A stretch of 64,000 nucleotides of DNA from an uncultured Eubacteriales bacterium (GCA_964429795.1 CAYSCW010000004.1:35939-99938), one strand, 5' to 3'. Counted from the stretch's first letter, positions 1,911 to 49,904 are shown. The notes: generated by a model from the sequence alone, not told the origin. Program-made: numbers and translations.

Positions 1911-2852
1911 ATGGGAAAATACAACATCGGCATCATCGGGGCAGGGCCAGTGGGAAGCATCATGGCCGCCTATCTTTCCCGAAGCGATGAAAATGTCTAC
2001 ATCGTGGATATTAAAAAAGAACTGATTCAAGCCATAAAAGAGAAAGGAATCACGGTCACTGGAGTGAGGGACAATTTCACCACAAAAATCAAGGGTACGG
2101 GTTACTTCGCAGCTAATCTTAATCGGTTTGACGTAGATCTTATTTTCGTGGCGGTGAAGTGCAACTATCTTGATACGCTCTTGGATGAACTAAAGCTGAT
2201 CCATAAGCCGGGCCAAAAAATAGTTCTTCTTCAAAACGGGATCGATAATGAGGACAGAGCAGCCGAGAAATTCAGTAAGATGGATATCCTGAGGTTTGTG
2301 ATCAATTATGCCGGAATGATCGTCAACCCGGGCACTGTCAGGTTCTCTTTCTTTAATCCGCCCAATTATATCGGAGTCCTGTCCTCCAAAAACAGGTCTA
2401 TTGCCAACGAAATTGCTGAAATCATAAGCGATGCGGGTCTAGAGACAGTCCACACTCCTGAAATAAAAAAGTTCGAATGGAAAAAGACCATCCTCAATGC
2501 GGCTCTGATGCCGGTCTGCGCCACCACGGGATTAACTATGAAACAGGCCATGGAAAGGGAGGAAACACGTTTCCTCTGCGAACAGATCCTCTCTGAATGC
2601 ATACAAGTGGCTAAAAAACTTGGCTTCAAATACGAGCGCAACTTCTTCGAGAATTGCCTTGCTTATCTGGACAATGCCGGCAATCACAAGCCCTCCACCT
2701 CTATCGACCTGGAAGCAGGTAATCCCATCGAATACATCTTCCAACCGATCATCGACTACGGAAAAAAAATCGGCTCTCCCACACCCTGTCTTGAATCCTT
2801 GACCAAGGTTGTCCGCACTCTGGAGCATAAGAAAAGAGAGAAAAAACTATAG
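1911..2852 (+). CDS. panE: 2-dehydropantoate 2-reductase (ketopantoate reductase) family oxidoreductase
   Basis: N-terminal Rossmann motif IGIIGAGPVGS; 313 aa, size and layout of the ApbA/PanE family; GGAGAG-like RBS upstream. Confidence 0.6.
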   Translation: MGKYNIGIIGAGPVGSIMAAYLSRSDENVYIVDIKKELIQAIKEKGITVTGVRDNFTTKIKGTGYFAANLNRFDVDLIFVAVKCNYLDTLLDELKLIHKPGQKIVLLQNGIDNEDRAAEKFSKMDILRFVINYAGMIVNPGTVRFSFFNPPNYIGVLSSKNRSIANEIAEIISDAGLETVHTPEIKKFEWKKTILNAALMPVCATTGLTMKQAMEREETRFLCEQILSECIQVAKKLGFKYERNFFENCLAYLDNAGNHKPSTSIDLEAGNPIEYIFQPIIDYGKKIGSPTPCLESLTKVVRTLEHKKREKKL

Positions 2853-3682: not shown

Positions 3683-6547
3683 CTAAGGTGTCTTCTTCTT
3701 AAGCGCCCTGAGGATCTTTTCTGGAGTGATGGGAAGATCTTTTATCCAGACTCCGGTGGCATGGGCGATGGCATGGGCTAATGCGGGTAAAACAGGAAGG
3801 ATGGAGCCTTCCCCGATTTCTTTAGCTCCATACGGCCCCTCTGGTTCATAGGATTCGACGATCCCGCTGAAGATCTCAGGGGCATCTTTGATGGTCATCA
3901 ACAAGTAATCATGGAGGTTGGGATTAAGAATGTTACCCTTTTCATCGTAGACAACCTCTTCCATGAGTGTCTCTCCTGCTCCCATGACCACAGCTCCCTC
4001 GGTTTGACCATGAACTGCCTGGGGATTGATGGGTGTCCCGCAGTCATGAAATCCAGTGAATTTTCTGATCTTCACCTTTCCTGTTTCTAAGTCGACCTCA
4101 CACTCACAAACAGAGCTGCCGAAGGAGTAGGCCGGGCTGGTTCCCACGGCCGCTCCTTTGAAATCTCCACCTAATCCTTCCGGGGGTTTATACCATCCTT
4201 TTCCCACAAGAGGACCATTCTGGTTAAAATATTTTCTTGCCGCCTCAGCCCATTCCATGGTCTTTGTTTGATCTTCCTTATGGTATATCCGGTTGTTCCT
4301 GGCCTCCAACTGCTCAGGGGCACAGTTCCACATCCTGGAAACTTCTAAAAAAAGCTTCCCGAGCACTTCTTTACCTGCCATGGCCACAGCATTTCCACCC
4401 ATCAGAGTGGTCCTTGAGGAATATGCTCCCAGGTCAAGGGGACTGATGTCCGAATCTTCCGAGCGGATGCGTACCCGATGCAGGCTTATCCCCAGAGTTT
4501 CGGCGCATATCTGAGAGAGGACAGTGGCTGCGCCCTGACCGATCTCTGCTGCCAGGATGAGAAGCACGGCTGCTGTGCCGTCTTCACTGATTTTGATTAT
4601 GGCATTGGAATGGGGAAAAGTGGCTTTTTTGAGGAAAGGTTCAGGCTCCTTTTCAGAAGTTCGCTGGACCTGCCCCCTGTAAATAGAATATGCTGCTCCT
4701 GAGACAAACCCTCCGCAACCGATGCCTATTCCTCTTCCTGGAGGAAGTTTACCGTATTTCTTTTTCCATTCTGACTTCTCTGCCACTTCTTTAAGAGTGG
4801 CCTTGAACTCGCAGCTTCCCACATACAGATCATTACACGTTCGCATGTTCGCTTCCATGGCATTGCGCTGGCGGATGTCGATAGGATCGATCCCAAGGTC
4901 ATCGGCAATCATGTTGAGCAGGCTCTCAAAGGCAAACCGGGGCTGAGGGGTTCCGTTTCCCCTCATGGCGCCGCAGGCCGGCTTATTGGTCACCACTCTG
5001 AATCCCTCATAACGATAGTTCGGAATACGGTAAAGAGTGGGGATCATACCTCCTGCATAGTAAGCGGTAATAATACCAAAAGAGGTGTATGCCCCTCCAT
5101 CCAGGTAGATCTGGCTCTTGACAGCAGTGATTCTCCCATCCTTCTTGACACCGATCTCAAATCTCATATATTGCTTGTGCCTTCCCCGGCCATGGAGAAA
5201 CATTTCCTGGCGGGTGTAGACCATCTTGACCGGCCGTCCTGTTCTCCTCGAGGCTATGGCTGTGACCAGGTCGAGGGGAGTGGTTTCAGCCTTTCCTCCG
5301 AATCCTCCTCCCACAGGAGGACGGATGATACGAATGTCCCCTAGAGGAATGTCCAGCACCCGAGCCAGCATGTATTGCAGGTAGTGGGGGACCTGAGTCG
5401 ATGAATACAAAACCAGGTTCGATCCGTCGTTTTCCCAATAGGCGATGGAAGCGTGGGGTTCGATCGGATTCTGGTAAGTATGATTCCCGATGAATTCCTC
5501 TTCCCGGATATAATCCGCCTCGGCGAATCCCTTTTCGATATCCCCGAAATTGTGGTCCACATGGGTGTTGATATTATTTCTATACCTCTCATGAAGCTGG
5601 GGCGCGCCTTCCCTGATCGCTTCCATGGGATCGAAGACCGCAGGAAGCTCTTCGTATTTCACCTCGATCAATTCCAAGGCTTTCTCTGCCGTTTCCTCAT
5701 CGGTGGCAATAATCGCGGCTACCTCGTCGCCCACGTAACGGACTCGATCCTTGGCCAGCACATGCTCATCGTAGCGGGCCGGAGAAACACCGTACAGAAT
5801 ATCAGGAACATCCTTGCCGGTCAGAACCAGCTTTACGCCGGGCAGCAACTCTGCTCTGGAAGTATCGATCTTTTTGATCCGGCCATGCGCGACAGGAGAA
5901 TGCAGAATCTTGCCATAGAGCATGTTTTCAAAAATAAAATCCGCTGTATACTTGGCTCTGCCTATGACCTTTTCAGCGGCATCGACACGGGGAAGGCTCC
6001 TGCCGACTGTATCAAATTCATTCCTGTCTTCAGGAGGAACAGGCGGAACTTTAGTCTTTTCATATTTCTTCCAATTTTTTACTGCCTCGATGATCCGCGT
6101 ATAGCCAGTGCACCGGCAGAGGTTTCCAGCAAGTGCCTCTTTAATCTCTTCTTCTGTAGGATGAGGATTACGGCGAATCAATGCATAAGCGCTCACCACC
6201 ATTCCCGGTGTACAGAATCCACACTGAATGGCTCCATGGTTGATGAAGGCCCGTTGGATCGGATGCAGTTCTCCATCCTGAGCTATTCCCTCGATAGTGG
6301 TGATTTCTGACCCTTCGCAGGCAGCAGCAAGGAGAAGACAACTGTTCTTTGGCTCCCCATCAACGAGTACTGTGCAGGCTCCGCATACTCCTAGGTTACA
6401 TCCTTTCTTGGTGCCAGTCAGCCTCAATTTATTCCTTAAAACATCAAGAAGAGTTTCCCCTTGCTTAACAGCAACGGAATGCAGTTCACCGTTGACCTTG
6501 AATGAGAGGATGCGGTATGCCCCTTTTTCTTTCTTCATAAACCTCAA
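3683..6547 (-). CDS. Molybdopterin aldehyde oxidoreductase, xanthine-oxidase family, with N-terminal 2x[2Fe-2S] domains fused to the Mo-binding domains (D. gigas MOP-like architecture)
   Basis: 954 aa. N-terminal region carries C-x4-C-x2-C (GCNLGVCGACTV) and CGFCTPGMV...CRCTGY FeS motifs. The remainder carries the GGGFGGK molybdopterin-dehydrogenase signature. Its stop overlaps the upstream FAD-subunit gene by 4 nt. Confidence 0.8.
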   Translation of the reverse strand: MRFMKKEKGAYRILSFKVNGELHSVAVKQGETLLDVLRNKLRLTGTKKGCNLGVCGACTVLVDGEPKNSCLLLAAACEGSEITTIEGIAQDGELHPIQRAFINHGAIQCGFCTPGMVVSAYALIRRNPHPTEEEIKEALAGNLCRCTGYTRIIEAVKNWKKYEKTKVPPVPPEDRNEFDTVGRSLPRVDAAEKVIGRAKYTADFIFENMLYGKILHSPVAHGRIKKIDTSRAELLPGVKLVLTGKDVPDILYGVSPARYDEHVLAKDRVRYVGDEVAAIIATDEETAEKALELIEVKYEELPAVFDPMEAIREGAPQLHERYRNNINTHVDHNFGDIEKGFAEADYIREEEFIGNHTYQNPIEPHASIAYWENDGSNLVLYSSTQVPHYLQYMLARVLDIPLGDIRIIRPPVGGGFGGKAETTPLDLVTAIASRRTGRPVKMVYTRQEMFLHGRGRHKQYMRFEIGVKKDGRITAVKSQIYLDGGAYTSFGIITAYYAGGMIPTLYRIPNYRYEGFRVVTNKPACGAMRGNGTPQPRFAFESLLNMIADDLGIDPIDIRQRNAMEANMRTCNDLYVGSCEFKATLKEVAEKSEWKKKYGKLPPGRGIGIGCGGFVSGAAYSIYRGQVQRTSEKEPEPFLKKATFPHSNAIIKISEDGTAAVLLILAAEIGQGAATVLSQICAETLGISLHRVRIRSEDSDISPLDLGAYSSRTTLMGGNAVAMAGKEVLGKLFLEVSRMWNCAPEQLEARNNRIYHKEDQTKTMEWAEAARKYFNQNGPLVGKGWYKPPEGLGGDFKGAAVGTSPAYSFGSSVCECEVDLETGKVKIRKFTGFHDCGTPINPQAVHGQTEGAVVMGAGETLMEEVVYDEKGNILNPNLHDYLLMTIKDAPEIFSGIVESYEPEGPYGAKEIGEGSILPVLPALAHAIAHATGVWIKDLPITPEKILRALKKKTP

Positions 6548-7428
6548 TTTCCCTTCTCAGATTTTCTCTGGGCCCTCTCTGAGGCTTCAGCAAGCGCTCT
6601 TCTGGTCAGAACCTCGACCAGTTCCTTCCTGAACCAGAGGGAGCCGCGGATATCAGAGATGGGATGACATTCTTCTTTAGCCATCTGAGCAACCCTGGCA
6701 AAGAGGCTCTCTGAAGGCTCCTTTCCGACAAGAAACCGGGAAGTTTTCATAGCCAGAACTGGAGTGGGGGCAACCGCACCAAGGACCACAGCAGCCCCGG
6801 TAATTTTTCCGTTAGCAATGGTGAGTCGAGCAGCTACAGATGCAACCGCAAGGGAGTTGGCCTCACGCAGGGCAAGTTTTTGATAGGAAACGCCTGTCTT
6901 GGGAGGAAGAAGAGGAAAATGAATAAAAGTCAACACTTCCCCTTCTCCACAAACTGTCTCTCTTGGACCGGAAAAGAAAGAAGAAAGAAGGACCTCCCGT
7001 GAAGAATCAAGACAGTGAAGCTCAACTCTGGCCTCGGCGGCCATCAGAGAGGGTGGAAGATCTGCCGAAGGCACAGCACTGGATATATTCCCCCCGATTG
7101 TGGCCATGGAACGAATCTGGTAAGAGGCCATAGAGCGAGCGGCATCAACCAGGGCCGGAAGAGATCGATTGATGAGGGGATTGCAGATGAGATCTTGTGC
7201 CGTGACCATGGCACCGATTCTTATCCTATTTTTCTCTTCTGTTATGTCCTTAAGTTCTTTTATCTCCTGAAGGGAGATAAGGTTTCTGGCTCGGACTAAG
7301 CCCTGCTTCAGGTCAACCAGGAGATCTGTTCCCCCTGCCAAGATACGAGCTTGCTCGAGTTCTGCCAGAAGCCTCAAGGCTTCATTTAATGTTTGCGGCG
7401 TGTGAAATCTCGCCTCATAGAGGGACAT
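6544..7428 (-). CDS. FAD-binding subunit of a xanthine-dehydrogenase-family enzyme (CoxM/XdhB-like)
   Basis: ILAGGTDLLVDLKQG FAD-binding motif; 294 aa; overlaps the MOP-like gene by 4 nt, consistent with co-transcription. Confidence 0.75.
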   Translation of the reverse strand: MSLYEARFHTPQTLNEALRLLAELEQARILAGGTDLLVDLKQGLVRARNLISLQEIKELKDITEEKNRIRIGAMVTAQDLICNPLINRSLPALVDAARSMASYQIRSMATIGGNISSAVPSADLPPSLMAAEARVELHCLDSSREVLLSSFFSGPRETVCGEGEVLTFIHFPLLPPKTGVSYQKLALREANSLAVASVAARLTIANGKITGAAVVLGAVAPTPVLAMKTSRFLVGKEPSESLFARVAQMAKEECHPISDIRGSLWFRKELVEVLTRRALAEASERAQRKSEKGN

Positions 7429-7649
7429 TCTTGAGTCCTTGCCTGTCTTTCTTTTTAGGAGTCATATATCATCGCAGACAGGAGTTGTCAACACGTGCAC
7501 CCGCAACGCATCATGATTTGACTTCCCGGTTTCCCTCTGATACTAGTTAGAAGCAGCAAAAACTCTGGTGCTAAAAGGATGGCAGAAAACAGAATAGATT
7601 CCTCAAGAAAAATTCCTCGCTTTTTCCCCTATAATTCCTGATTGTGGTT

Positions 7650-8496: not shown

Positions 8497-8670
8497 ATGG
8501 AAACATACTTAACCGTCAATTTGGCCATTGCCGCTTATCTCATCGGTTCCATCTCCTTCAGTTATATCCTTGCCAAAAAAGCTGCAGGAATAGACATTCG
8601 AAAGGTGGATTCAAAAAGATTTATAGATTTAACATATGCCTTTATTCATTCAGTTTTCTTAAACACATAG
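8497..8670 (+). pseudogene. plsY: Remnant of plsY (glycerol-3-phosphate acyltransferase): N-terminal about 35 codons conserved, then divergent and stopped at codon 58
   Basis: Translation METYLTVNLAIAAYLIGSISFSYILAKKAAGIDIR... matches the PlsY N-terminus (AYLIGSIP..L...DIR) but lacks the following GSGNxGATN motif. The ORF overlaps the 3' end of the minus-strand DUF35 gene. Confidence 0.45.
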
Positions 8671-9083
8671 TTCAGTTGTCCATCGGGAAGCCTGTTAACC
8701 ACGGTCTCCATATCCATGCCCAGCTTGATCTCCTCTTCTGGAACATCGCTTGAAATCCTCCCGAAAACCTTATACTCTCCATAATCCAGAACAGCTATGC
8801 TGTATGGCAGATCCTGCTCAAACCCGACAGGAGCATACTTGAGTTGGCTGTAGGAGATGAGCCTACCCTTACCTGCGACCTCAAACCATTCTACCTCACT
8901 GGAAAAACACTTGTAGCAATCAGCTCTGGGCGGGAAGAAAACCTGGCCACATTCTTTGCAGCGGGTCCCCATGACTTTACCCTGTTCCAGGTAGTTTATA
9001 AAATCATTCACTCTAGTAACAGAAGTGAAGCTCACCGTTCCAAATTTTTTAAACCGGTCATCGATCTCTTTCTTCTGACTCAT
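8646..9083 (-). CDS. DUF35-family Zn-ribbon/OB-fold protein (acyl-CoA-associated partner of SCPx-type thiolases)
   Basis: CKECGQVFFPPRADCYKC zinc ribbon followed by an OB-fold segment; sits 3 nt downstream of a thiolase-like gene, the usual pairing. Confidence 0.7.
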   Translation of the reverse strand: MSQKKEIDDRFKKFGTVSFTSVTRVNDFINYLEQGKVMGTRCKECGQVFFPPRADCYKCFSSEVEWFEVAGKGRLISYSQLKYAPVGFEQDLPYSIAVLDYGEYKVFGRISSDVPEEEIKLGMDMETVVNRLPDGQLNYVFKKTE

Positions 9084-9086
9084 CCT

Positions 9087-10253
9087 TTACCTCCCCAGAA
9101 TTGTGACGTTTCCATAAAGGCCCACTCCGCCGATGTTGTGGACAAGTCCAATCTCTGGCTCTTTAACCTGCATCTCCCCGGCTTCGCCTCTGAGCTCGAG
9201 AACGATGGTCCTGATCTGCGACCCGCCGGTAGCCCCTATGGGATGCCCCTTGGAAAGCAAACCTCCATCCACATTGACCGGAATGCGCCCCTCTTTGTAA
9301 GTCTCTTTACTCTTTATCAGTTCCTTTCCCTCTCCCGGCTTGGCAAAGCCTAAGTCTTCATAGGCCAGTATTTCTGATATGGTGAAGCAGTCGTGAACCT
9401 CTGCCACATCGATATCCTGAGGCACGACTCCAGCCATCCTGTAGGCCTGTTCAGCAGCCTGTCGGGCTACGGTCAAACCTGTGAACAGATCCCTGCCTGC
9501 CATGTTGACACTGGCTGAGGCAGCTCCTAATCCTAGAATCCAAACCGGCCTCTGGGAAAACGTCTCAGCCCTCTCTTCGCTGGCAACAATCAGACAGGAA
9601 CTTCCATCGGCGTTGGCACAACAGTCCCCTACTCGAAGGGGGCTGGAAACCGGGCCAGACATGAAATGCTCGGGATCAGAAAACATCTCCACAGTCACCG
9701 GCTTTCGGAATAAGGCTTTTGGATTGACCTGTCCATAAGTGGCTGACTTCACCCTGACCAAAGCCAGGTCTTCCAGCATGGTTCCATATTTTTCCATATG
9801 AGCCTTGGCAAACATGGCATAATAGGCAGGCATCATGGTTCCGAATGGACTCTCCCACTGGATATCCGCACCTCGGCCCATTCTTTCTTGGGATTCTGCA
9901 GAGGAAATCTCCGACATCTTCTGGAATCCCAGAACAGCCACCACATCGTGAAGGCCGGACTTAATCAAAGAATAGGCCATTCTCAATCCCATACTTGTCG
10001 AGGAGCATAAGCTTTCTAAATAGCAGGTGGGTTGAGGAATGAGCCCAAGGTACTCGGCAAAGACGCCCGATGGAGAGCGCTGCTTGTCGTACTCAGGAGC
10101 AGAGCAGATGATAGAGGCATCGATATCCTGTGCAGAAATCTGGGCATCCTCCATGGCTTCTTTGAAGCCTTCAAAAGCCAGCTCTCTGATCGAACCGGGG
10201 TAACCCCGTACAAAAGCACTCTGTCCGACTCCGATAATTCCGACTTTTCCCAT
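9087..10253 (-). CDS. SCPx-type (non-condensing) thiolase-like protein
   Basis: Thiolase-fold motifs (GxGxS N-terminus, C-terminal GHPIGATG). The likely start is MGKVGIIGVG at 10253, which has a GGAGGTG RBS; the ORF as listed extends 15 codons further upstream. Confidence 0.7.
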   Translation of the reverse strand: MGKVGIIGVGQSAFVRGYPGSIRELAFEGFKEAMEDAQISAQDIDASIICSAPEYDKQRSPSGVFAEYLGLIPQPTCYLESLCSSTSMGLRMAYSLIKSGLHDVVAVLGFQKMSEISSAESQERMGRGADIQWESPFGTMMPAYYAMFAKAHMEKYGTMLEDLALVRVKSATYGQVNPKALFRKPVTVEMFSDPEHFMSGPVSSPLRVGDCCANADGSSCLIVASEERAETFSQRPVWILGLGAASASVNMAGRDLFTGLTVARQAAEQAYRMAGVVPQDIDVAEVHDCFTISEILAYEDLGFAKPGEGKELIKSKETYKEGRIPVNVDGGLLSKGHPIGATGGSQIRTIVLELRGEAGEMQVKEPEIGLVHNIGGVGLYGNVTILGR

Positions 10254-10309
10254 GAAACACCTCCATTCAATCAAGGATGAGGGCTGTCCGGGGAACAATC
10301 CCTATAGTT

Positions 10310-11053
10310 TCAAATGTACTGGCCGCCGTCAACCTTGATGACCTCCCCTGTGATATGAAGGGCCTTATCACTGCACAGAAAAGTCACCAGATAAGCCACA
10401 TCCTCTGGTTTTCCAAGAGATTTGAAGACAGTTTCGGAGATTGACTGCTCCTTGTATTCCTCAGGCATGTTTTTTATCATCTCCGTCTCGATTAAACCCG
10501 GTGCCACTGCATTGACGTTCACTTTGAATTTTCCCATCTCCCTAGCTACGGTCTTGCTCAGCCCGATGATGCCGGCCTTAGCCGCCGCATAATTCGCCTG
10601 TCCAAATTTCCCTCTTAAGGCATTTATGGATGTGACATTAACGATTTTTCCGGATTCCTGCTCTTTAAAAACCGGTGTCACGGCTCTGATAAAATTGAAA
10701 GCACCCTTCAGGTCCACATTGATCACAGTATCCCACTGTTCCTCGGTCATCTTCCAGACTACTCCATCCCAGTTCATTCCAGCGTTGTTGACCAGAATAT
10801 CCAGGCGGCCAAATTCATCCATAACACTATTCACGAGTTTCTGAACCGCTTCAAAATCAGAGATATCGATCTTATATGCTTGTGCTCGACGGCCCATTGT
10901 TTTGATCTTATCGACAATGGCCTTGGCTTCCTCCTCATGCCTGCGAAAGGTTAAAGCCACATCTGCTCCATTGTGGGCCAGGTCTAAAGATATGGCGGTG
11001 CCAATTCCCAGGCTTCCTCCGGTGACAAGGGCAACTTTTCCTTCCAAACCCAT
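10310..11053 (-). CDS. Short-chain dehydrogenase/reductase (FabG / 3-hydroxyacyl-CoA-dehydrogenase-like)
   Basis: VALVTGGSLGIGTAI Rossmann motif and a Yxxx(A)K catalytic motif. The likely start MGLEGK at 11053 has a perfect AGGAGG RBS 7 nt upstream; the longer listed ORF (to 11155) is probably N-terminal over-extension. Confidence 0.75.
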   Translation of the reverse strand: MGLEGKVALVTGGSLGIGTAISLDLAHNGADVALTFRRHEEEAKAIVDKIKTMGRRAQAYKIDISDFEAVQKLVNSVMDEFGRLDILVNNAGMNWDGVVWKMTEEQWDTVINVDLKGAFNFIRAVTPVFKEQESGKIVNVTSINALRGKFGQANYAAAKAGIIGLSKTVAREMGKFKVNVNAVAPGLIETEMIKNMPEEYKEQSISETVFKSLGKPEDVAYLVTFLCSDKALHITGEVIKVDGGQYI

Positions 11054-11173
11054 TTCAGTCCTCCTCTTTAATTTACTGTTTTTTCCCTTACAGCGAAAAT
11101 CATTATGAACAGCCCGTTCGGGGAACAGACCTTGCAAAAACCTCTTTTCTATCAAAAAAAATGAAACTTACTC

Positions 11174-13522: not shown

Positions 13523-13677
13523 CAGTCAATTCTCCCCAATCTTCTGTCTTTGATGATGTTATCTCTTTAGAAAAAGGGAAAAGGGACAGGCAACTTTTCT
13601 ATAAGATAAAGAATCCCGATGCGGCACGGCCCTTTCTTAAGAAAGCCGTCTGTCCCCATTTTATCTTTCTTATTCCT

Positions 13678-14808: not shown

Positions 14809-14821
14809 TTTTTCCTCCTTT

Positions 14822-14851
14822 TAAAAAATAGCGGCGCGTTTTTCTACGCCG
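14822..14851 (-). terminator. Rho-independent terminator candidate downstream of the SSS transporter gene
   Basis: On the minus strand, CGGCG-N10-CGCCG (GC-rich 5-bp stem) is followed by TATTTTTT, lying between the transporter stop (14878) and the next RBS and start (14808). Confidence 0.4.
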
Positions 14852-14877
14852 AATACTACTTTTCCCTCTCTGCCGTG

Positions 14878-16293
14878 TCAAGGGAGGGGCGATTTTATTT
14901 TTCTTTTATCGATGATGGCGATCAGAAAAAAGGTCAAAAGGCTCGCTATCCAGCAGAGATATATGGGATGGGGAAGGTGTAATTTTTGGAAAAAAGATGC
15001 AACTTGAGGAAAAACGAGCCAGGCCGCAAGAGACGCCATAGCCACCAGCAGAGTCCAGAAGGCATGGGCGCGCCGGCAGATTTTTGGCCAGAAAAGGGTC
15101 ATCAGGGTCACCAGAGTGTAAGCTGTGGTCAAGGAGAGCCCGATGAGTAAAGTTTTGAGGATGCCCGAGACGGAGACAGCCAGAAGATAGGTGAAGATAC
15201 TGAGAATCAAAACAGATATCCGAGAGATCGCTCTTTCACCTTTTTCTCCAAGGTCAGGAGCGACGAACCTCTTGATCAAATCGCCCACCACCAGAGTGGC
15301 GCTTCCCAACAGAAGGGCGGATGCGGTGGAAACATCAGCCGCCCACAGCCCGGCCAGCACCAGCCCCGCCACCACCGGACTCAAGCTTAAAACCGTGCGC
15401 GGCAAGGCTTCGGTGGGGATGATTCCCGGGTGGAGGATGGTGGCGGCAAGGCCGATGAGAGCACTTATAAAACCCACTGGAAGGATAATCAACCCTCCCA
15501 AAATAAATCCTCTGCTCGCAGAGGAAGGGTCTTTGGCCGCAAAACTGATTTGAACCACAGATTGGACCGAGAAGGCCATAGTGCACATCACCATAAACCA
15601 GGCGATGACGAGCCCCCATCCGATGGCGCTCAAATCAAAGCCAGGATGTTGGGCCGGAATTTTGGCGACAAACTCTCCCCACCCCCCAATCTTCACAACG
15701 GCTATCACCGCTCCCAAAACCACGCCTACATAGATCAGAATCACATTGATGATATTGGTCAGGCCAGCCGCCCAAAAGCCTCCGATCAGGGTGATTCCTA
15801 CAAAGACCACTGCAGTGACAAACATCCCTGTCTTAATGTCAAAAATATCGGGCAGTAACGAGGAGAGGATCGCTCCGCCAGCCACATACTGAAGCGAGGT
15901 GATCACAACCTGCAAGACTAGCTGTCCAACCACCCCTATGATTCGACCAGGAATGCTGTAATGCCTTTCGAAAAGCTCTGGAAGGGTAGCCACTTCCATC
16001 TGCCTGTAGCGCCGGGCAGCAATAAAGCCCACCAGGATGGCTCCTGCAGCCCAGGCCGCATTGTACCAGCCTGCTGAAAGACCTGTATTATAGGCTCTCT
16101 CTGCCACACCCACCGTGGAAGCTCCACCCACGGCCAGACCTGCCAACAGGGGGGCAACCACCCAGAACGGGAGGCCTCGGCCTGCCAGAAGATAGGCAAC
16201 CATCCCCCCGCGGCTCAGGCGTCGGGTGGCCCAAGTGATCGCATAGAGGAGAAGGATGTAAATACAAACAATGGTGAAAGGAATCCAGTTCAC
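14878..16293 (-). CDS. Sodium:solute symporter (SSS) family transporter
   Basis: 471 aa, about 13 TM segments, and a glycine-rich N-terminal region (LAGRGLPFWVVAPLLAGLAVGGAST) typical of SSS proteins such as PutP and ActP. Confidence 0.7.
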   Translation of the reverse strand: MNWIPFTIVCIYILLLYAITWATRRLSRGGMVAYLLAGRGLPFWVVAPLLAGLAVGGASTVGVAERAYNTGLSAGWYNAAWAAGAILVGFIAARRYRQMEVATLPELFERHYSIPGRIIGVVGQLVLQVVITSLQYVAGGAILSSLLPDIFDIKTGMFVTAVVFVGITLIGGFWAAGLTNIINVILIYVGVVLGAVIAVVKIGGWGEFVAKIPAQHPGFDLSAIGWGLVIAWFMVMCTMAFSVQSVVQISFAAKDPSSASRGFILGGLIILPVGFISALIGLAATILHPGIIPTEALPRTVLSLSPVVAGLVLAGLWAADVSTASALLLGSATLVVGDLIKRFVAPDLGEKGERAISRISVLILSIFTYLLAVSVSGILKTLLIGLSLTTAYTLVTLMTLFWPKICRRAHAFWTLLVAMASLAAWLVFPQVASFFQKLHLPHPIYLCWIASLLTFFLIAIIDKRKIKSPLP

Positions 16294-16364
16294 GCTTACC
16301 GCTTGTGGCTCATAGATTCGTCAATTCCCTAAAAGGTCTGTTCGGCGAACAGACCCTAAAGATC

Positions 16365-18452
16365 TTACTGTTCTTTAATCACCTTTAAGCGGGCATCCAC
16401 CACCAAGGCACCCTTTCCAGGCTCAAAAGCAAACACAGGATTGAGATCTATCTCCCCGATCTCTGGAAACTCTGAAACCAGTTGAGAGAAACGAATCATG
16501 ATCTCAACCAGCTTCTCCAAATCGACTCCTTTCTCTCCTCTTGTTCCTTCCAAGAGCGGATAACCTTTGATGGAACGGGCCATCTCCCAAGCGTCATCTT
16601 CAGAGAGAGGGGCTAACCTGAACACGACATCCTTCAAAATCTCCACAAAGATTCCTCCTAAACCAAACATGATGGTCGGCTGAAACCCCTCATTGGCCTT
16701 GGCACCCATGATCACTTCCTTTCCGTCTTTGAGATACTCCTGGAGAATGAACCCGGGCTTTTCTTTTTCAAATTTCCTGGACATTGCCTCAAAGGCTGTC
16801 TTAAGGGCCTCTCTTTCCTTGAGATCGAGCTTAACTCCCCCAACTTCTGTCTTATGAACGATCTCTTCTGAATCCACCTTCAGGGCCAGCGGGTAGCCGA
16901 CTTTGGCTGCAGCCTCTTCCAGCTCATCTTTTTTCCGGATTCTTGTGGTGATCACGGTGGGAATGCCGTAACTGCGGAGAATCTCAAAGACATCAGCCTG
17001 GGGGATGAATTTTTCCTGGCCTCTGTGTCGGCTTATGACTGATTCGGCTGTCTCTCTATCAACATCGTACTTCTTATAGAAGGGAGCCTCTTTCTGGATC
17101 ATTTGGCTGTATCGAGTCATCGAAGAAAGAACTCTTGAGGCGGTTTCAGGAAAATCATAAACAGGAATGCCGCTTTCTCTGATGAGACGAACCACTTCGG
17201 CCCATCTCTCGATGGTCATCACCACACAGACAATCGGCTTTTCAGCAGTCTTACCGATTTCAGACAGCCTGCGGGCCACACCTTCGCAGTCAACAAAGGG
17301 CGGGGTGACAAAGTTGAGCAGAAGTGAGTCGATATGGGGATCTTTAAGCAGAGTCTCCACCGTGCCTCCATACTGTTCAGGGCCTGCTGTGGCGACCACA
17401 TCCACAGGATTGGATACTATGGCCTCTGTAAAGAGGAGCTTACCCAAAGCTTCTTTGGTCTCAGGGCTTAATTCCGCTAATTTGAGTCCTGCAGAGATAG
17501 CCTCATCCACAGAGATTATGGCAGGTCCTCCTGTATTGGTGACGATAACCACGCGATCTCCTTTGGGCACAGGCTGGGTGGAAAAACCTATTGCTGCCTC
17601 CACCATCTCCTCCTGGGAGTGGAATCTGAGGACACCGCTCTTCTGGAAGATGACATCAGTGAGCGTGTCTTGTTCGATCAAGGAACCGGTGTGGGAGGCA
17701 ACAGCCACCGCCCCCTCCGATGTCTTTCCTGATTTCAAGGCCAGAATCGGCTTCTCGGGTGTGATCCGGCTGGCAACTTCAAGAAAACCAGCAGGGTCTT
17801 TCAAGGTCTCAATGTGAACCATGATGACTCTTGTCCCCTCGTCCTGGCCGTAGTACTCGATGATCTCATTCATGCTCACATCCGCCTCATTGCCAAAACT
17901 GGCGTACATCCTGATTCCCATACCCACTTCATAGAGATGAAGCTTCAGAGTTTCTCCCACTCCTCCACTCTGAGCGACGATGGAGATATTACCGGGGAAC
18001 ATGGGAACAAAGGTAAAATTGGCATAGACGGAGACATCAGGATCAGAATTCTGAATCCCTTGAGAATTGGGACCGTAAATTCGCATGCCGTACTTGTGAG
18101 CAATATCCACAATCTGCTTCTCCAGCTCCAGTCCCTCCTCTCCCACTTCCTTGAAGCCAGCCGTATGGACGATGGCGAACTTCACTCCTTTCTTCCCGCA
18201 TTCTTCGATGACATGAGGAACCAAAGTGTTTTTGATGGAAATGTTCACCAAGTCAATATCATCAGGAACTTCTGTTACAGAGGGAAAAGCTCTGAAACTC
18301 TTGATATATTTGGATTTGGGATTGATGGGATAGATGGGACCCTTGAAATTATGATTAAGCAGATTGGTGATAACGATATGACCGATGCTCAAGGGATTAT
18401 TTGAAGCACCGATGATAGCCACTGACTTCGGTTTAAATAAAGAATCAAGCAT
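16365..18452 (-). CDS. Acyl-CoA synthetase (NDP-forming), fused alpha/beta subunits (acetyl-CoA synthetase ADP-forming family)
   Basis: N-terminal CoA-binding motif KSVAIIGASNNP, a central succinyl-CoA-synthetase-like flavodoxin domain and a C-terminal ATP-grasp domain; 695 aa. Confidence 0.8.
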   Translation of the reverse strand: MLDSLFKPKSVAIIGASNNPLSIGHIVITNLLNHNFKGPIYPINPKSKYIKSFRAFPSVTEVPDDIDLVNISIKNTLVPHVIEECGKKGVKFAIVHTAGFKEVGEEGLELEKQIVDIAHKYGMRIYGPNSQGIQNSDPDVSVYANFTFVPMFPGNISIVAQSGGVGETLKLHLYEVGMGIRMYASFGNEADVSMNEIIEYYGQDEGTRVIMVHIETLKDPAGFLEVASRITPEKPILALKSGKTSEGAVAVASHTGSLIEQDTLTDVIFQKSGVLRFHSQEEMVEAAIGFSTQPVPKGDRVVIVTNTGGPAIISVDEAISAGLKLAELSPETKEALGKLLFTEAIVSNPVDVVATAGPEQYGGTVETLLKDPHIDSLLLNFVTPPFVDCEGVARRLSEIGKTAEKPIVCVVMTIERWAEVVRLIRESGIPVYDFPETASRVLSSMTRYSQMIQKEAPFYKKYDVDRETAESVISRHRGQEKFIPQADVFEILRSYGIPTVITTRIRKKDELEEAAAKVGYPLALKVDSEEIVHKTEVGGVKLDLKEREALKTAFEAMSRKFEKEKPGFILQEYLKDGKEVIMGAKANEGFQPTIMFGLGGIFVEILKDVVFRLAPLSEDDAWEMARSIKGYPLLEGTRGEKGVDLEKLVEIMIRFSQLVSEFPEIGEIDLNPVFAFEPGKGALVVDARLKVIKEQ

Positions 18453-19229
18453 TTAACCCTCCTTTATTTCCATGGCATACAATGCCGCTCCCAAGGCGCC
18501 TGTCAACTGAGGAAAGGGAGGCACAAAAATTTCTCTCCCGATTTTTTCTTCGAACATTTTAACCAAAAAGGGATTGTAAGCCACCACTCCCCCAGTCATC
18601 ACGATATTTCCTTCCAAAGGATCCATCTCCAAGGCTCTCTTTATCACAGAGCCAAAAATGCCCCTCACCAAATCTGGCACCTCCACCCCTTCTCTGATTT
18701 TGGTCAGTATTTCTGTGGCCGTAAACACTGTGCAGTAGCTTCCGATCTCGATATTTCTTTTCGACTTTTCTGCCAACCCATTGAGTTTATCAATCTTAAT
18801 GCGCAGTCTGTTGGCGATCTCCTCGAGGAATGCCCCTGTGCCGGCTGCGCATTTGCGATTCATCCTGAAACCCGTCCTTTTCCCCGAATCATCCACCCTG
18901 ATGATCTTGCTGTCCTGTCCTCCGATATCGATCAAGGTATGGGCATGGGGAAAATGGAGATAGCTTCCCTTGGCATGACAACTGATTTCTGTCTTTATCC
19001 TGTGGGCAAAGGCAACATTCCGTCTTCCATAACCCGTGGCTACGACGGCGTGACTGTCAGCGATTCGCCTTTGAGCCTTCTTCTTTGATTCCCCGAAAAC
19101 CCGCTCAGCCGCAGCTTTAAAATCAACACCCGAATGCCTGACCGCATAGCCGAGGATATCCTTATTTTCATCGAGGATGATCGCTTTTGTAGTAGAAGCT
19201 CCGACATCCACTCCCACAAAATAATTCAT
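18453..19229 (-). CDS. CoA-substrate-specific enzyme activase (BadF/BadG/BcrA/BcrD/HgdC ATPase family)
   Basis: ASKHA-fold N-terminus FVGVDVGASTTKAIIL and two Cys positioned to bridge a [4Fe-4S] cluster; 258 aa, like HgdC/BcrD. Confidence 0.8.
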   Translation of the reverse strand: MNYFVGVDVGASTTKAIILDENKDILGYAVRHSGVDFKAAAERVFGESKKKAQRRIADSHAVVATGYGRRNVAFAHRIKTEISCHAKGSYLHFPHAHTLIDIGGQDSKIIRVDDSGKRTGFRMNRKCAAGTGAFLEEIANRLRIKIDKLNGLAEKSKRNIEIGSYCTVFTATEILTKIREGVEVPDLVRGIFGSVIKRALEMDPLEGNIVMTGGVVAYNPFLVKMFEEKIGREIFVPPFPQLTGALGAALYAMEIKEG

Positions 19230-19245
19230 CAGACTGGCTTTATAT

Positions 19246-20490
19246 TTATTTCGCCTCCAACTGCTCGATAAAGGCTTCGATATTTGTCTTGGCCTGCTCT
19301 TCTGAATAACACCGGAGATCGTTCAGGTCACCGTTTATAGTCAGAGAGGGAAGATTCAATTTTTTCTCCAGTCTTTCGGGCATGCCGTAACGATTGTTGG
19401 AATTGTTCGGGCAGGTCTTTGCATCATGGAACAGAATTCCATCTATTTTGAATTTTCGCACCATATCTTCGATGTATTTCTCCTTATAATTCTCATCCCT
19501 GACTATGAATATCTCTGTATAAGCCCGAACCATACTTATGAAGGGATCTTCAGGATCGAAGGAATCAAAGATCCAGCTGTTGCAGTAGGTGGAAGCGATA
19601 ACAGCTGTCCGTAGTGCGATGAAAAACTCGGCCAGACTCCTCAATTTTCCCCAGATCGGCATCCCTTCCCAGTAAAGCCGGTATTTTTCATCCCCTACCG
19701 CTCCTTCTCTGTTAGCAATCCTTTCCTCAAGTTCCTGGAGAAGCACTTCATAATACTCCACAGCCTGGGGACTTCCTCTCAAAACCACGGCCGGCCCCAT
19801 ATGGATGGTTCCATCAAAAAAGCTCATCGGGGCGGGAAGAGCCATGTTGACTTCCAGAACTTTTTTCCACATTTCTGTGCATTTTTTGGATAAGGCTAAA
19901 ACCTCACGAAATCTATCTATATCGAATTTATTGCCAGAAATCTTTTCTAGAGATGGGATCATGTCCTTTATCTGCTGAACAATGACCTGGAGATGATAAT
20001 CTTTGATCTCTCCTATGTTTCTGTAAGTAGATATACCAATTGCAGGAACGTTCAACTCTCTGGAATACCAGGAAAACCAATCCTGGACATCCCGGCACTG
20101 GTTGGTGTTGTAAACTAACACATCGGGCTTGGGAACCCCATCAATACCCTCGTAGGCTCGTGAGAGAGGAGTTTCTTTTTTTATGAAAGCACCCACATCA
20201 CTCGTTAAATACGAGCAAATATCCGGTGAATATCCGATAGCATTGCTCACGGGAATATAATCGTTGGCTGTACGGGTAGATCCCAGCATGGCACCGTGAT
20301 TCTCAGGATAATGGACAAGAAATCCTAAACTCAATAAAAGCTCAGCAGGGCCAACACTCGTGCACCAAGCTATTTTAGGCGATCCCTCCTTAGAAGCTCT
20401 ATCCATCTCATAAAAATAATCGGCCATGATCTTTCTCATATGACCTGTGGCCTTGATTTTTTTGATGAGGGATTTCTTTTCTTCGCTCAT
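19246..20490 (-). CDS. 2-hydroxyacyl-CoA dehydratase / benzoyl-CoA reductase B/C-like subunit (HGD-D family); single copy
   Basis: HGD-D family features, including a conserved C-terminal CPNNSNNRYG cysteine region. The likely start MSEEKK at 20490 has an AAGGAGG RBS 5 nt upstream. Only one such subunit is present where two are usual. Confidence 0.7.
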   Translation of the reverse strand: MSEEKKSLIKKIKATGHMRKIMADYFYEMDRASKEGSPKIAWCTSVGPAELLLSLGFLVHYPENHGAMLGSTRTANDYIPVSNAIGYSPDICSYLTSDVGAFIKKETPLSRAYEGIDGVPKPDVLVYNTNQCRDVQDWFSWYSRELNVPAIGISTYRNIGEIKDYHLQVIVQQIKDMIPSLEKISGNKFDIDRFREVLALSKKCTEMWKKVLEVNMALPAPMSFFDGTIHMGPAVVLRGSPQAVEYYEVLLQELEERIANREGAVGDEKYRLYWEGMPIWGKLRSLAEFFIALRTAVIASTYCNSWIFDSFDPEDPFISMVRAYTEIFIVRDENYKEKYIEDMVRKFKIDGILFHDAKTCPNNSNNRYGMPERLEKKLNLPSLTINGDLNDLRCYSEEQAKTNIEAFIEQLEAK

Positions 20491-20716
20491 TTTACCTCCT
20501 TCAAATAAAGACAATACTCTCTTTTGAGTTGCTGTGGTTTAACTTTTTAGGTGGGGAACAAGCAAAATCTCTTCCTTTTGAAAATATCAAAATATCAATA
20601 TTGCCATTTCAAGTCAACTGTTTCAAGCGAAATCATCTCTTTTTCCGTAATGAGGAAAGACATTTGATAGAATGAGGAATGGCGGCGCGGGTTTCCGTCC
20701 ATCCCCGACTGAATGG

Positions 20717-20805: not shown

Positions 20806-21585
20806 ATGACTCAAAAAAATTATGAAAACGTCCTCTTTGAAATCAAAGAAGAAAAGGCGCTCTTAACCATCAACCGCCCCCCTTTAAACATACTGAATAT
20901 CGCGACAATGGAAGAAATGAATGAGGCTCTGCGTTCTTTAATGGAGAATATAGAAGTCAAAGTTGTGATTATATCCGGGAGCGGGGACAAGGCTTTCTCT
21001 GCAGGAGTGGATGTGGCTGACCATACAGAAGAAAAGGTAGAAAAGATGCTTCATGTCTTTCATGATATCTTCCGCAACCTCGCCAAACTCGATCAGGTCA
21101 CTGTGGCTGCCTTGAAGGGATTGACTTTAGGAGGAGGATGTGAAATCGCTCTTTTCTGTGATTTGATCATCGCCGCTGACAATCTGAAAATCGGACAGCC
21201 GGAGATAAAACTCTCAGTCCTTCCTCCCATAGCCCTATTGATCATGCCCCGCCTTGTGGGACTGAAAAAAGCAGCCGAGCTCCTGTTAACAGGAAAAACC
21301 ATCGATGCCCATGAAGCCGAGCGAATAGGTCTGATTAACAAAGTCACACCTCTTGACTCATTCGATTCTGAATTGGAGACCTTTATTCAACCCCTGACTG
21401 AGCTGAGCTTGGTGGGATTGAAGTATTCCAAAAAAGGAATCACCCTGGGATTAGAAACGGCTTTCTCGGAAGGACTGCAGAGGATTGAAGAGATTTATCT
21501 TGGAGAATTGATGTCCTCAGAAGATGCCCATGAGGGTCTCCGAGCCTTTATGGAGAAAAGAAAGCCTCTCTGGAAAAATAAATAA
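20806..21585 (+). CDS. Enoyl-CoA hydratase/isomerase (crotonase); candidate cyclohexa-1,5-diene-1-carbonyl-CoA hydratase (Dch-like)
   Basis: 259-aa crotonase fold (SGSGDKAFSAGVD, GGGCEIALFCD); immediately followed by a Zn-ADH, as in dch-had pairs. Confidence 0.65.
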   Translation: MTQKNYENVLFEIKEEKALLTINRPPLNILNIATMEEMNEALRSLMENIEVKVVIISGSGDKAFSAGVDVADHTEEKVEKMLHVFHDIFRNLAKLDQVTVAALKGLTLGGGCEIALFCDLIIAADNLKIGQPEIKLSVLPPIALLIMPRLVGLKKAAELLLTGKTIDAHEAERIGLINKVTPLDSFDSELETFIQPLTELSLVGLKYSKKGITLGLETAFSEGLQRIEEIYLGELMSSEDAHEGLRAFMEKRKPLWKNK

Positions 21586-21596
21586 AGGAGGAAGAA

Positions 21597-22625
21597 ATGA
21601 AAGCGGCTGTGTTTTATGAGCCTAACCAACCCCTCAAAATAGAGGACGTGGAAAAGCCGGAAATCAGCCTTCATGAGATCCTGGTGAAGGTCGCCGCATG
21701 CGGCGTCTGCAATACGGATCTGCATTATATCGATCATGGGGTTCCCACGTTCAAAAAACCACCCATGATCCTGGGCCATGAACCATCGGGGATTGTGGAG
21801 GAAGTCGGTGAAGAGGTCAAAAACTTTAAGGTCGGCGATCGTGTGCTCATCCCTCCTGTTTTTTCCTGCGGTTATTGTCCCAATTGCCGATTGGGTCGGG
21901 AGAATATTTGCTTCAACATGCTGATGTTAGGAAATCACATCGATGGGGCTTATGCAGAATACACCAAGGTGCCGGCCAAAGACTGCCAGCACCTTCCCGA
22001 GGAGCTTCCCCTTGAAGAATCGAGCATCATCGCTGACGCTATATCCACACCTTATCATGCGGTCAAAAACAGAGCTCAGGTCAAGCTGGGAGACTCGGTG
22101 GTGGTGTTTGGCTGCGGCGGAGTAGGTATAAACGTTGTCCAGATGGCAGCCGCTTCTGGCGGATCGGTCATTGCTGTGGATCTCGTGGATAAAAAATTGG
22201 AAATCGCAAAACAGCTGGGGGCACTGCACACCATCAACGCTTCAGGAAAAGAAGACAAGGAACTCCTCAAGGAGATACGCAAATTGACGGATGGAGGAGC
22301 GGATATCGCCATTGAAGCTATCGGCAATCCCAAGACCATAGAGCTGGCTTTCGGTGCGGTCAAGGCAGGTGGCCTACACTGTCAAGTGGGATACACTCAT
22401 CACAGCGTGTCTTTAAACGCAGCAAGATTGATGTTCCGAGAGATCGAAATCAAAGGCTCCCTGGGTTGCCGTCCTGTGGATTATCCCAAGATCATCGAGA
22501 TGGCAAAGACGGGGAAGATTCAACTCAAGCCTGTGGTCACCAACAAGTTCAAGCTGGAAGAGATAAACGATGCGTTCGACCTGCTAAGGAAGGGTGAAGC
22601 CCTGAGATCCATCATCGTCCTCTAA
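21597..22625 (+). CDS. Zn-dependent medium-chain alcohol dehydrogenase; candidate 6-hydroxycyclohex-1-ene-1-carbonyl-CoA dehydrogenase (Had-like)
   Basis: CGVCNTDLHY and GHEPSGIVEEVG zinc motifs plus a GxGxxG NAD site; its start lies 11 nt after the upstream hydratase stop. Confidence 0.7.
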   Translation: MKAAVFYEPNQPLKIEDVEKPEISLHEILVKVAACGVCNTDLHYIDHGVPTFKKPPMILGHEPSGIVEEVGEEVKNFKVGDRVLIPPVFSCGYCPNCRLGRENICFNMLMLGNHIDGAYAEYTKVPAKDCQHLPEELPLEESSIIADAISTPYHAVKNRAQVKLGDSVVVFGCGGVGINVVQMAAASGGSVIAVDLVDKKLEIAKQLGALHTINASGKEDKELLKEIRKLTDGGADIAIEAIGNPKTIELAFGAVKAGGLHCQVGYTHHSVSLNAARLMFREIEIKGSLGCRPVDYPKIIEMAKTGKIQLKPVVTNKFKLEEINDAFDLLRKGEALRSIIVL

Positions 22626-49903: not shown

Positions 49904-49904
49904 A

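Follow-up and report, generated by a model that had tools for sequence, protein, structure and literature searches.

The 64,000-nucleotide window analysed here, from an uncultured Eubacteriales bacterium (GCA_964429795.1, CAYSCW010000004.1:35939-99938), contains a gene for a protein of the HGD-D family and, next to it, a gene for an ASKHA-type activase, and it is the function of this pair that we address (coordinates in Table 1). The first-pass annotation had described a single 414-residue HGD-D protein with a strong ribosome-binding site and one co-oriented activase, and both genes were found as described. Read from its ATG, the HGD-D gene encodes 414 residues, or 422 if an upstream TTG is used; we place the start at the ATG because an AAGGAGG lies 4 nt upstream of it and because the close homologues are all 414 residues long. 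To judge by the organisms named as the sources of these homologues, the window belongs to Candidatus Aminicenantes. The activase gene starts 16 nt past the HGD-D stop codon and is directly abutted by a gene for an ADP-forming acyl-CoA synthetase (ACD). All three belong to a series of nine co-directional minus-strand genes (8646-20490) with intergenic gaps of 0-155 nt. This series also includes, 3.6 kb from the activase gene and 4.4 kb from the HGD-D gene, what had been noted as a BamA/Oah-sized crotonase; its TIGR03200 score identifies it as a genuine BamA/Oah, the ring-cleaving 6-oxocyclohex-1-ene-1-carbonyl-CoA hydrolase.

The HGD-D protein matches PF06050 over residues 54-419 of the 422-residue open reading frame, with a score (214.8 bits) that exceeds the cutoff of 28.4 and makes it a member of the BCR/HAD superfamily. 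Among the NCBIfam models, HadB scored highest (224.7), followed by BcrB (169.4), BzdO (88.2), the double-cubane-cluster protein (DCCP, 55.5) and HadC (13.2), and the BcrC and BzdN models gave no match. The scores for HadB (NF052455, cutoff 750), BcrB (TIGR02260, 486.55) and BzdO (TIGR03191, 448.6) all lie below the respective equivalog cutoffs. In a sequence search against the PDB, HadB was again the best match (175 bits, 29% identity), ahead of MbdO (127 bits) and BzdO (89 bits). We further built an AlphaFold 2 model of the protein from an alignment of 101 sequences (pLDDT 97) and compared it to known structures with Foldseek. Here too HadB was the best match (3o3m_A/C; TM 0.89-0.94, root-mean-square deviation (rmsd) 1.8-2.0 Å), followed by MbdO and BzdO (TM about 0.85, rmsd 3.2-5.1 Å), DCCP (TM 0.77) and the β subunits (TM about 0.72).

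By alignment, Cys92 (20215-20217), Cys132 (20095-20097) and Cys360 (19411-19413) are the predicted ligands of a [4Fe-4S] cluster, and Glu63 (20302-20304), within the motif YPENH, is the predicted catalytic residue. The three cysteines align with Cys95, Cys128 and Cys380 of BzdO as well as with the cysteines of HadB, and Glu63 aligns with Glu65 of BzdO and the PEN glutamate of HadB. In 101 family members Cys92 and Cys360 are invariant, Cys132 and Glu63 nearly so. The PENH motif is common to our protein and the dehydratase α subunits; in its place the reductase clade shows PE[I/L/F]. BzdO has, beside an iron-bound water, an acid/base histidine (His131; PMC11971306), to which Val135 corresponds in our protein; MbdO likewise has no histidine there, so this position may not define the reductase family. 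From its sequence and modelled fold, the protein is clearly predicted to be an α-type, that is, a substrate-binding, HadB/FldB-like subunit. Three members of the same clade (P0131, P0148, P0136) have lost all three cluster cysteines, with for instance SSAMTSD in place of CSYLTSD, and two of the three carry a fused ApbA-type domain; these proteins may be cluster-less pseudoenzymes or have a changed function.

The activase scores above the TIGR00241 cutoff of 125.4 bits, and its best matches in a sequence search against the PDB were MbdQ (190 bits), HadI (188) and HgdC (177). It carries Cys127 and Cys166, and we take these to be the sites at which HgdC holds its bridging [4Fe-4S] cluster.

In every 2-hydroxyacyl-CoA dehydratase and class I benzoyl-CoA reductase characterised so far, two different HGD-D subunits are required, the second of which is thought to relay or store the catalytic electron. 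The lack of a second subunit, to which the first-pass annotation had drawn attention, holds for the 64-kb window and for 59 related loci. In tblastn searches of the window, both proteins found only themselves, and a profile hidden Markov model (HMM) search of all six frames gave one HGD-D match only. With this HMM, which was built from 105 family representatives and run without filters (--max), we found no partner HGD-D gene in 87 loci, comprising seven look-up loci and 80 related loci, save for a BcrB fragment of a separate system in L036 and L040. In the 59 loci that were well flanked, with 1.5 kb or more on either side of the orthologue, there was no second HGD-D gene within 10 kb apart from that separate Bcr system, and in 54 of them one activase gene lay within 1 kb of the orthologue. 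Pfam searches of the called genes of four loci, and of selected unknown neighbours, yielded no β subunit. As no partner gene lies nearby, the HGD-D protein is most likely active as a homodimer. Within the superfamily there is a precedent in DCCP and its reductase DCCP-R (Carboxydothermus hydrogenoformans; PDB 6eno, 7yyl) and in YjiM/YjiL of E. coli, where a homodimeric HGD-D-type protein is paired with one homodimeric ATPase.

We found 1820 members of the superfamily among 1.84 billion representatives. In the tree built by neighbour joining, about 20 of them cluster with the query, apart from both the HadB clade and the clade of MbdO and the reductases. The protein thus falls into a clade of its own and not within the HgdB-type subunits, a placement considered in the first-pass annotation, or any other β-type subunits, in line with the low HadC score and the missing BcrC and BzdN matches. 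A scan of one genome per species yielded at least 597 loci of this clade. The best 80 of these, with 62-86% identity to the query, are from Aminicenantes, Zixibacteria, Ignavibacteria, Planctomycetota, many Desulfobacterota (Desulfomonilaceae, Desulfobacterales, Syntrophales and Geobacter) and Thermoplasmatota archaea; one carrier in culture is Desulfatirhabdium butyrativorans (WP_028324072.1). The identity of the HGD-D protein to homologues from Thermoplasmatota metagenome-assembled genomes (MAGs; L032, L049) is 64-65%, and that to Desulfobacterota 62-68%, values that are unusually high for such distances and suggest that the module of activase, HGD-D protein and ligase may have moved by horizontal transfer. 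The database labels of the clade proteins are generic ('BcrC/BadD/HgdB'). In the literature on 2-hydroxyacyl-CoA dehydratases of Aminicenantes, on homodimeric dehydratases and on MbdO structures we found no α-only enzyme described, and the clade would represent an α-only, ligase-coupled group of 2-hydroxyacyl-CoA dehydratases.

The genes around the orthologues are conserved in several arrangements. Within 8 kb, 33 of the 59 well-flanked loci have an ACD gene and 19 an ApbA/PanE-type gene. An 865-residue GlcD-FeS-CCG 2-hydroxyacid dehydrogenase is found in 14 loci, as is a 526-residue AMP-forming ligase (AMP-ligase), and genes of β-oxidation recur as neighbours. One family member with 50% identity to the query, P0122, is a fusion of ApbA with a single HGD-D domain, and its N-terminal ApbA domain is 39% identical to the ApbA/PanE-type protein of our window. 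The occurrence of two unrelated types of reductase and two unrelated types of ligase with one and the same partner fits a pathway from 2-oxoacid to 2-hydroxyacid, 2-hydroxyacyl-CoA and enoyl-CoA.

Aminicenantes clusters run on into BamA, a short-chain dehydrogenase (SDR) and a Bbs-type thiolase with DUF35 protein, and they also keep the divergent pair of crotonase and zinc-dependent alcohol dehydrogenase (Zn-ADH) that flanks the HGD-D gene in our window. The sodium:solute symporter (SSF) that follows the ACD gene in the window is kept at this position in Aminicenantes, Zixibacteria and Ignavibacteriales-labelled loci. The cluster order in Zixibacteria and Ignavibacteria is HGD-D, activase, ACD, (SSF), ApbA, (XDH, an enzyme of the xanthine dehydrogenase family), Had, Oah, Dch, and in these clusters Had and Oah exceed their equivalog cutoffs; Zixibacteria L020, for example, has scores of 452.7 for Had (cutoff 338.65) and 581.7 for Oah (464.45), with a Dch-like gene below its cutoff (257.2 against 292.5). 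XDH genes form part of the cluster in L001, L007/L008, L012, L015 and L040. To the molybdenum subunit of the window's XDH enzyme, the copy in the L040 cluster is 58% identical and those in Aminicenantes clusters 39-55%; the window subunit scores near the HcrA cutoff (919 against 994.55), as do the copies with 58-76% identity to it in L009, L021 and L040.

Canonical reductase genes accompany the orthologous pair in three loci. In Ignavibacteria L036 (2-2839) and L040 (6354-9034), the C-terminus of BcrB, BcrA (475 and 474 residues) and BcrD (281 and 287 residues) are encoded directly upstream of the pair, and the BcrD of L040 exceeds its equivalog cutoff (TIGR02261, 327.7 against 312.85). In a Bacteroidia MAG (L024, 3-1363), a BzdQ above cutoff (422.5 against 380.2) is encoded 8.6 kb upstream of the pair. 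The coexistence of canonical class I reductase genes and our pair in one cluster indicates that they have different jobs. The BcrB of L040 is a 129-residue C-terminal piece beside a B12-radical-SAM gene on the opposite strand, and could be a pseudogene or the result of a rearrangement.

Five Desulfobacterales-type loci (L048, L054, L062, L065, L068) carry, in this order, genes for IorA-like, IorB, PaaK-like and ApbA proteins, activase, HGD-D protein, ligases and thiolase. The same layout is found in Desulfococcus multivorans (Dmul_24730-24900), where the sizes of the proteins match (416, 269 and 319 residues) and the order is likewise reductase, activator, α subunit and ligases. This cluster also holds IorA3B3, a thiolase, Hbd5, two AMP-ligases, a TRAP transporter and a 680-residue HBD-ECH, a fusion of the kind also encoded in our window; compared to our window it has AMP-forming ligases in place of the ACD and is without BamA. 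Proteins of two adjacent clusters are formed by D. multivorans on phenylpyruvate or phenylacetate, and phenyllactate supports its growth (PMC5109826). The proteogenomic study of this organism predicts a phenyllactate dehydratase with an α subunit and an activator only, and does not remark on the missing partner (PMC5109826). This role is itself a proteogenomic prediction, and we liken the enzyme to our clade by size and gene order, not by sequence; the D. multivorans protein was not among the Desulfobacterales orthologues obtained by look-ups of sequence clusters.

On this evidence we read the pair as an α-only, oxygen-sensitive and ATP-primed 2-hydroxyacyl-CoA dehydratase, probably of aryllactyl-CoA, which would feed β-oxidation, benzoyl-CoA formation and BamA, and we give this reading a probability of about 0.62. 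Most likely, the pair converts phenyllactate-type acids for breakdown by the benzoyl-CoA pathway, and it is probably not the ring reductase that it resembles. Four observations hint at an aromatic substrate: the loci with IorA and PaaK, the layout and growth data of D. multivorans, the presence of BamA in the window, and an HcrA-like enzyme nearby. HcrA is the α subunit of 4-hydroxybenzoyl-CoA reductase.

In the mechanism we propose, each α subunit would hold one [4Fe-4S] cluster on its three cysteines, with one iron left free for the thioester, and in the homodimer the second active-site cluster would serve for relay or storage as HadC does. The activase, presumably a homodimeric ASKHA ATPase whose [4Fe-4S] cluster bridges the two monomers, would spend ATP to inject one electron of low potential. 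At the open iron, the thioester carbonyl of the bound (R)-2-hydroxyacyl-CoA would be reduced to a ketyl radical, whereupon the α-hydroxyl would leave, Glu63 would take the β-proton, and the electron would return to be reused over many turnovers. Overall this would amount to the redox-neutral syn-elimination of water that characterises 2-hydroxyacyl-CoA dehydratases. These steps are modelled on HadBC/HadI, the only new element being a second α subunit that would supply the neighbouring cluster.

The comparison to HadBC/HadI of Clostridioides difficile (PDB 3o3m/3o3n, 4eht) rests on the HadB fold, the three cysteine ligands, the PEN glutamate and the ASKHA activator with its cluster cysteines, all of which are common to both systems. 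Yet our system is without a HadC-type β subunit, has an ADP-forming ligase in place of the CoA-transferase HadA, and belongs to a clade of respiring or syntrophic anaerobes and uncultured phyla, whereas HadBC/HadI is found in clostridial amino-acid fermenters. With the phenyllactate dehydratase FldABC/FldI of Clostridium sporogenes our system would share the substrate class and the position in aromatic amino-acid metabolism, on the route from arylpyruvate via aryllactate and aryllactyl-CoA to arylacrylyl-CoA; by description, the two differ in that FldB and FldC form a heterodimer that is bound to the CoA-transferase FldA, where our system has one type of subunit and a ligase.

The substrate would most likely be an aryllactyl-CoA, either phenyllactyl- or 4-hydroxyphenyllactyl-CoA, made from the imported acid by the adjacent ACD and, starting from arylpyruvate, by way of an ApbA-type reductase. 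For the import the symporter downstream of the ACD gene is the probable system, and for the reduction the ApbA/PanE-type gene of the window is a candidate. The ACD would take the place of the classical CoA-transferase: no family III enzyme (HadA, FldA, GctAB, Pct) is encoded in the cluster, where the ACD abuts the activase, and related loci elsewhere have AMP-ligases. Being reversible, the ACD could both activate the hydroxy acid and regain ATP from the product thioester. Quinate, shikimate or other alicyclic 2-hydroxy acids were considered as substrates and rejected, as an ApbA-type reductase cannot make a tertiary alcohol and the neighbourhoods suggest arylpyruvates.

Downstream of the dehydratase, the cinnamoyl- or coumaroyl-CoA formed would be hydrated, oxidised and thiolysed to (4-hydroxy)benzoyl-CoA and acetyl-CoA by a crotonase, then the ADH or the SDR, then the thiolase with the DUF35 protein, a pairing of the BbsAB type (8646-10298). 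Benzoyl-CoA would be dearomatised by a reductase encoded elsewhere, and its ring ultimately cleaved by BamA. The crotonase-ADH pair had been described as divergently transcribed and similar to Dch-Had of the benzoyl-CoA pathway; its orientation is as described, whereas the proposed similarity to Dch-Had is not borne out by the equivalog models, both scores being below cutoff. The two proteins could act on the enoyl-CoA product as its hydratase and dehydrogenase, or else be a diverged Dch and Had.

Several points weigh against this reading. If the crotonase and ADH of the window were indeed a diverged Dch and Had, they would not be the enzymes for cinnamoyl-CoA. The route from benzoyl-CoA to BamA is incomplete here, since we found no benzoyl-CoA reductase in the window, in about 9 kb beyond its high end, or in about 3.6 kb upstream of the first gene at its low end. 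The assignment of the substrate draws on gene context, and many loci, namely those of the GlcD type and those of Geobacter with generic β-oxidation genes, show no aromatic signal. The orthology of Dmul_24850 to the clade is inferred from size and gene order. As for the subunit composition, the homodimer is deduced from the absence of a nearby partner gene only, so that a β-type gene may lie elsewhere, and the partner HMM was made from α-type sequences and may miss very divergent β-type proteins. The mechanism and the direction of flux, like the homodimer and the substrate, are what we infer.

The most serious alternative, which we consider possible but clearly less probable, is that the pair is the same α-only radical dehydratase acting on a non-aromatic substrate, such as lactoyl-, 2-hydroxyglutaryl-, 2-hydroxyisocaproyl- or 2-hydroxybutyryl-CoA, and that the link to BamA is incidental or reflects a shared downstream β-oxidation. 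The enzyme of the 14 GlcD-FeS-CCG loci is of the D-lactate/glycolate dehydrogenase type and comes with a generic AMP-ligase, the Geobacter-type loci hold only thiolase, hydratase and 3-hydroxyacyl-CoA dehydrogenase, and HadB, the nearest solved structure, is an enzyme of the leucine pathway. Against this, neighbourhoods with IorAB and PaaK, with an HcrA-like enzyme, with Had, Oah and Dch or with Bcr recur in four phyla, the D. multivorans cluster of the same layout responds to phenylpyruvate and phenylacetate, and the level of identity within the clade across phyla is suggestive of one conserved substrate class.

It is unlikely, in our view, that the HGD-D protein is the α subunit of an ordinary heterodimeric dehydratase whose β subunit is encoded elsewhere in the genome, even though the 2-hydroxyacyl-CoA dehydratases and class I reductases characterised so far are all heteromeric (PMC7317905, PMC11971306). 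Canonical α and β genes adjoin each other, whereas the 59 well-flanked loci, which have no second HGD-D gene within 10 kb other than that of a separate Bcr system, represent at least six phyla and one archaeal lineage. Fusions of ApbA with HGD-D hold a single HGD-D domain, the authors of the D. multivorans study list just an α subunit and an activator, and the homodimeric DCCP with its single reductase again provides the precedent.

The first-pass annotation had left the choice between a dehydratase-type and an aryl-CoA-reductase-type enzyme; of these, the former is favoured, for an aromatic CoA ester. That the pair is instead a minimal, homomeric ATP-dependent benzoyl-CoA (aryl-CoA) reductase, with one ATPase and without the double-cubane subunit, supplying the dienoyl-CoA to Dch, Had and BamA, we regard as very improbable. 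Such a reductase, acting on benzoyl-CoA or on a substituted analogue of it, would explain ring opening in a lineage that has BamA but no recognisable reductase in the 64-kb region. The pair is clustered with BamA here and with above-cutoff Had and Oah and a near-cutoff Dch-like gene in Zixibacteria L020, and genes labelled 'class I bcr' have been reported for Aminicenantes and Thermoplasmata in surveys of metagenomes (PMC6472368). Our system shares with BzdNOPQ, MbdONPQ and BcrABCD (PDB 8s02, 9gai) the superfamily, the α subunit with a three-cysteine [4Fe-4S] cluster, the glutamate, the ATP-driven ASKHA activator and the linkage to BamA. However, class I enzymes are defined by an [8Fe-9S] subunit and a second ATPase (PMC11971306), and in the window and related loci we found neither a BzdN/BcrC-type subunit nor a second ATPase gene belonging to the pair. 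In addition, the BcrB and BzdO scores are far below their cutoffs, the fold is nearer to HadB than to the reductases with their larger structural deviation, the true BcrA and BcrD of L036 and L040 and the BzdQ of L024 are extra genes beside the pair, and the Desulfobacterota orthologues are found among genes of the arylpyruvate or lactate type, without Dch, Had or Oah.

Finally, a DCCP/YjiM-like reductase of small molecules with its own reductase would have the same architecture of one HGD-D-type protein, expected to be a homodimer, and one ASKHA ATPase, but we rejected this barely credible reading on motif, score and fold, as the cysteines of our protein (43, 92, 132, 204, 303, 360, 394) do not fit the 7-Cys motif CX19CX18-19CX29CX166-170CX32-34CX32C that goes with the [8Fe-9S] cluster of DCCP, the similarity is weak (NF040772 cutoff 350; TM 0.77), and the gene context is one of CoA-ester metabolism, whereas DCCP has narrow channels for small molecules.

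If our preferred reading as an α-only aryllactyl-CoA dehydratase is true, the clade, with its at least 597 species genomes from bacteria and archaea, would show that a second catalytic copy can fill the relay role. Mechanistic studies, and the engineering of routes to cinnamate-, acrylate- or adipate-type products, would gain a system of two proteins. Ketyl-radical dehydration would no longer be a trait of clostridial fermenters alone but also one of sulfate reducers, metal reducers, syntrophs and candidate phyla, hosts in which an ATP-conserving, ADP-forming ligase would stand in for the CoA-transferase. In surveys, clade genes labelled 'BcrC/BadD/HgdB' can count as class I benzoyl-CoA reductase and thus inflate the ATP-dependent ring reduction inferred for strict anaerobes.

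Table 1. Genes and signals of the 64-kb window that are referred to in the text, with their position in the window and the matches on which their assignment is based (scores in bits).
Feature	Position	Strand	Evidence and remarks
Ribosome-binding site AAGGAGG	20495..20501	-	4 nt before the ATG at 20490; read from sequence
α-type HGD-D protein, 414 aa, predicted catalytic subunit	19246..20490	-	PF06050 214.8
ASKHA-type activase ('archerase'), 258 aa	18453..19229	-	PF01869 173; TIGR00241 227.1
ADP-forming acyl-CoA synthetase (ACD), 695 aa	16365..18452	-	CoA_binding_2, Succ_CoA_lig, Ligase_CoA_2, ATP-grasp_5 (Pfam)
Sodium:solute symporter	14878..16293	-	PF00474 100.4
BamA/Oah, 6-oxocyclohex-1-ene-1-carbonyl-CoA hydrolase (ring cleavage), 376 aa	13678..14808	-	TIGR03200 565.1, cutoff 464.45
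Fused 3-hydroxyacyl-CoA dehydrogenase / enoyl-CoA hydratase, 782 aa	11174..13522	-	3HCDH_N, 3HCDH, ECH_1, ECH_2 (Pfam)
Short-chain dehydrogenase (SDR, FabG-like)	10310..11155	-	adh_short 203
Thiolase-like protein	9087..10298	-	Thiolase_C_1 150; BbsB model 172, far under its cutoff
DUF35 zinc-ribbon/OB protein	8646..9083	-	zf-ChsH2/OB_ChsH2_C called in relatives
Crotonase	20806..21585	+	Divergent from the pair; Dch model (TIGR03189) 150.7, below cutoff 292.5
Zn-ADH	21597..22625	+	Divergent from the pair; Had model (TIGR03201) 238.3, below cutoff 338.65
ApbA/PanE-type 2-oxoacid reductase	1911..2852	+	TIGR00745 160.2, cutoff 141.35; 16 kb from the pair
XDH-family enzyme: fused 2Fe2S and Mo subunit, plus FAD subunit	3683..7428	-	Close to HcrA; TIGR03194 919, below cutoff 994.55

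Within the series of nine genes, the true start of the SDR gene is probably internal to the reading frame listed, as its relatives are called at 247 residues. Promoter and terminator scans of the region gave results at chance level and were not used as evidence. Both the best promoter-like site of the region (14881-14853, minus strand, 10 of 12 matches) and a terminator-like hairpin (14851-14832, minus strand) lie between the symporter and BamA genes, in scans that were overall at chance level; the nine genes may form two transcription units, split at this point.

On the other side of the HGD-D gene, the crotonase-ADH pair is adjoined by a gene for an FHA-GAF-PP2C (SpoIIE) protein (22696-24381, minus strand), which has the same position in three close relatives (L002, L004, L006) and whose product could regulate the cluster. 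The DUF35 gene is separated from the HcrA-like XDH genes by a gene for a protein of the Amidohydro_2 family (7644-8495, plus strand), which takes in non-oxidative hydroxybenzoate decarboxylases.

A second XDH-family operon (49274-53137, plus strand) has the order hcrCAB, with a 2Fe2S subunit of 209, a molybdenum subunit of 752 and an FAD subunit of 324 residues. In the FAD subunit, some 45 inserted residues with four cysteines (Cys115, Cys120, Cys130, Cys138) recall the extra [4Fe-4S] loop of HcrB, and the best match of this subunit is TIGR03195, at 195.7 against a cutoff of 404.55; the molybdenum subunit scores just 453 on the HcrA model. The operon is followed by a gene for a 718-residue protein resembling a molybdopterin subunit (53692-55848, plus strand), which may be permuted or rearranged given its unusual domain order, with a partial MoCoBD_2 at residues 62-201, a hammerhead domain at 222-280 and MoCoBD_1 at 322-542, and by an XdhC-type maturation gene (56460-57542, minus strand).

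Two tandem genes at 24420-29439 (minus strand) encode proteins of about 840 residues that combine an MFS/TLC membrane domain, similar to ATP/ADP translocases, with C-terminal HEAT repeats, and a third TLC-like protein of 457 residues is encoded near them (32174-33547, plus strand). MFS/TLC-HEAT proteins are unexpected for a free-living sediment bacterium.

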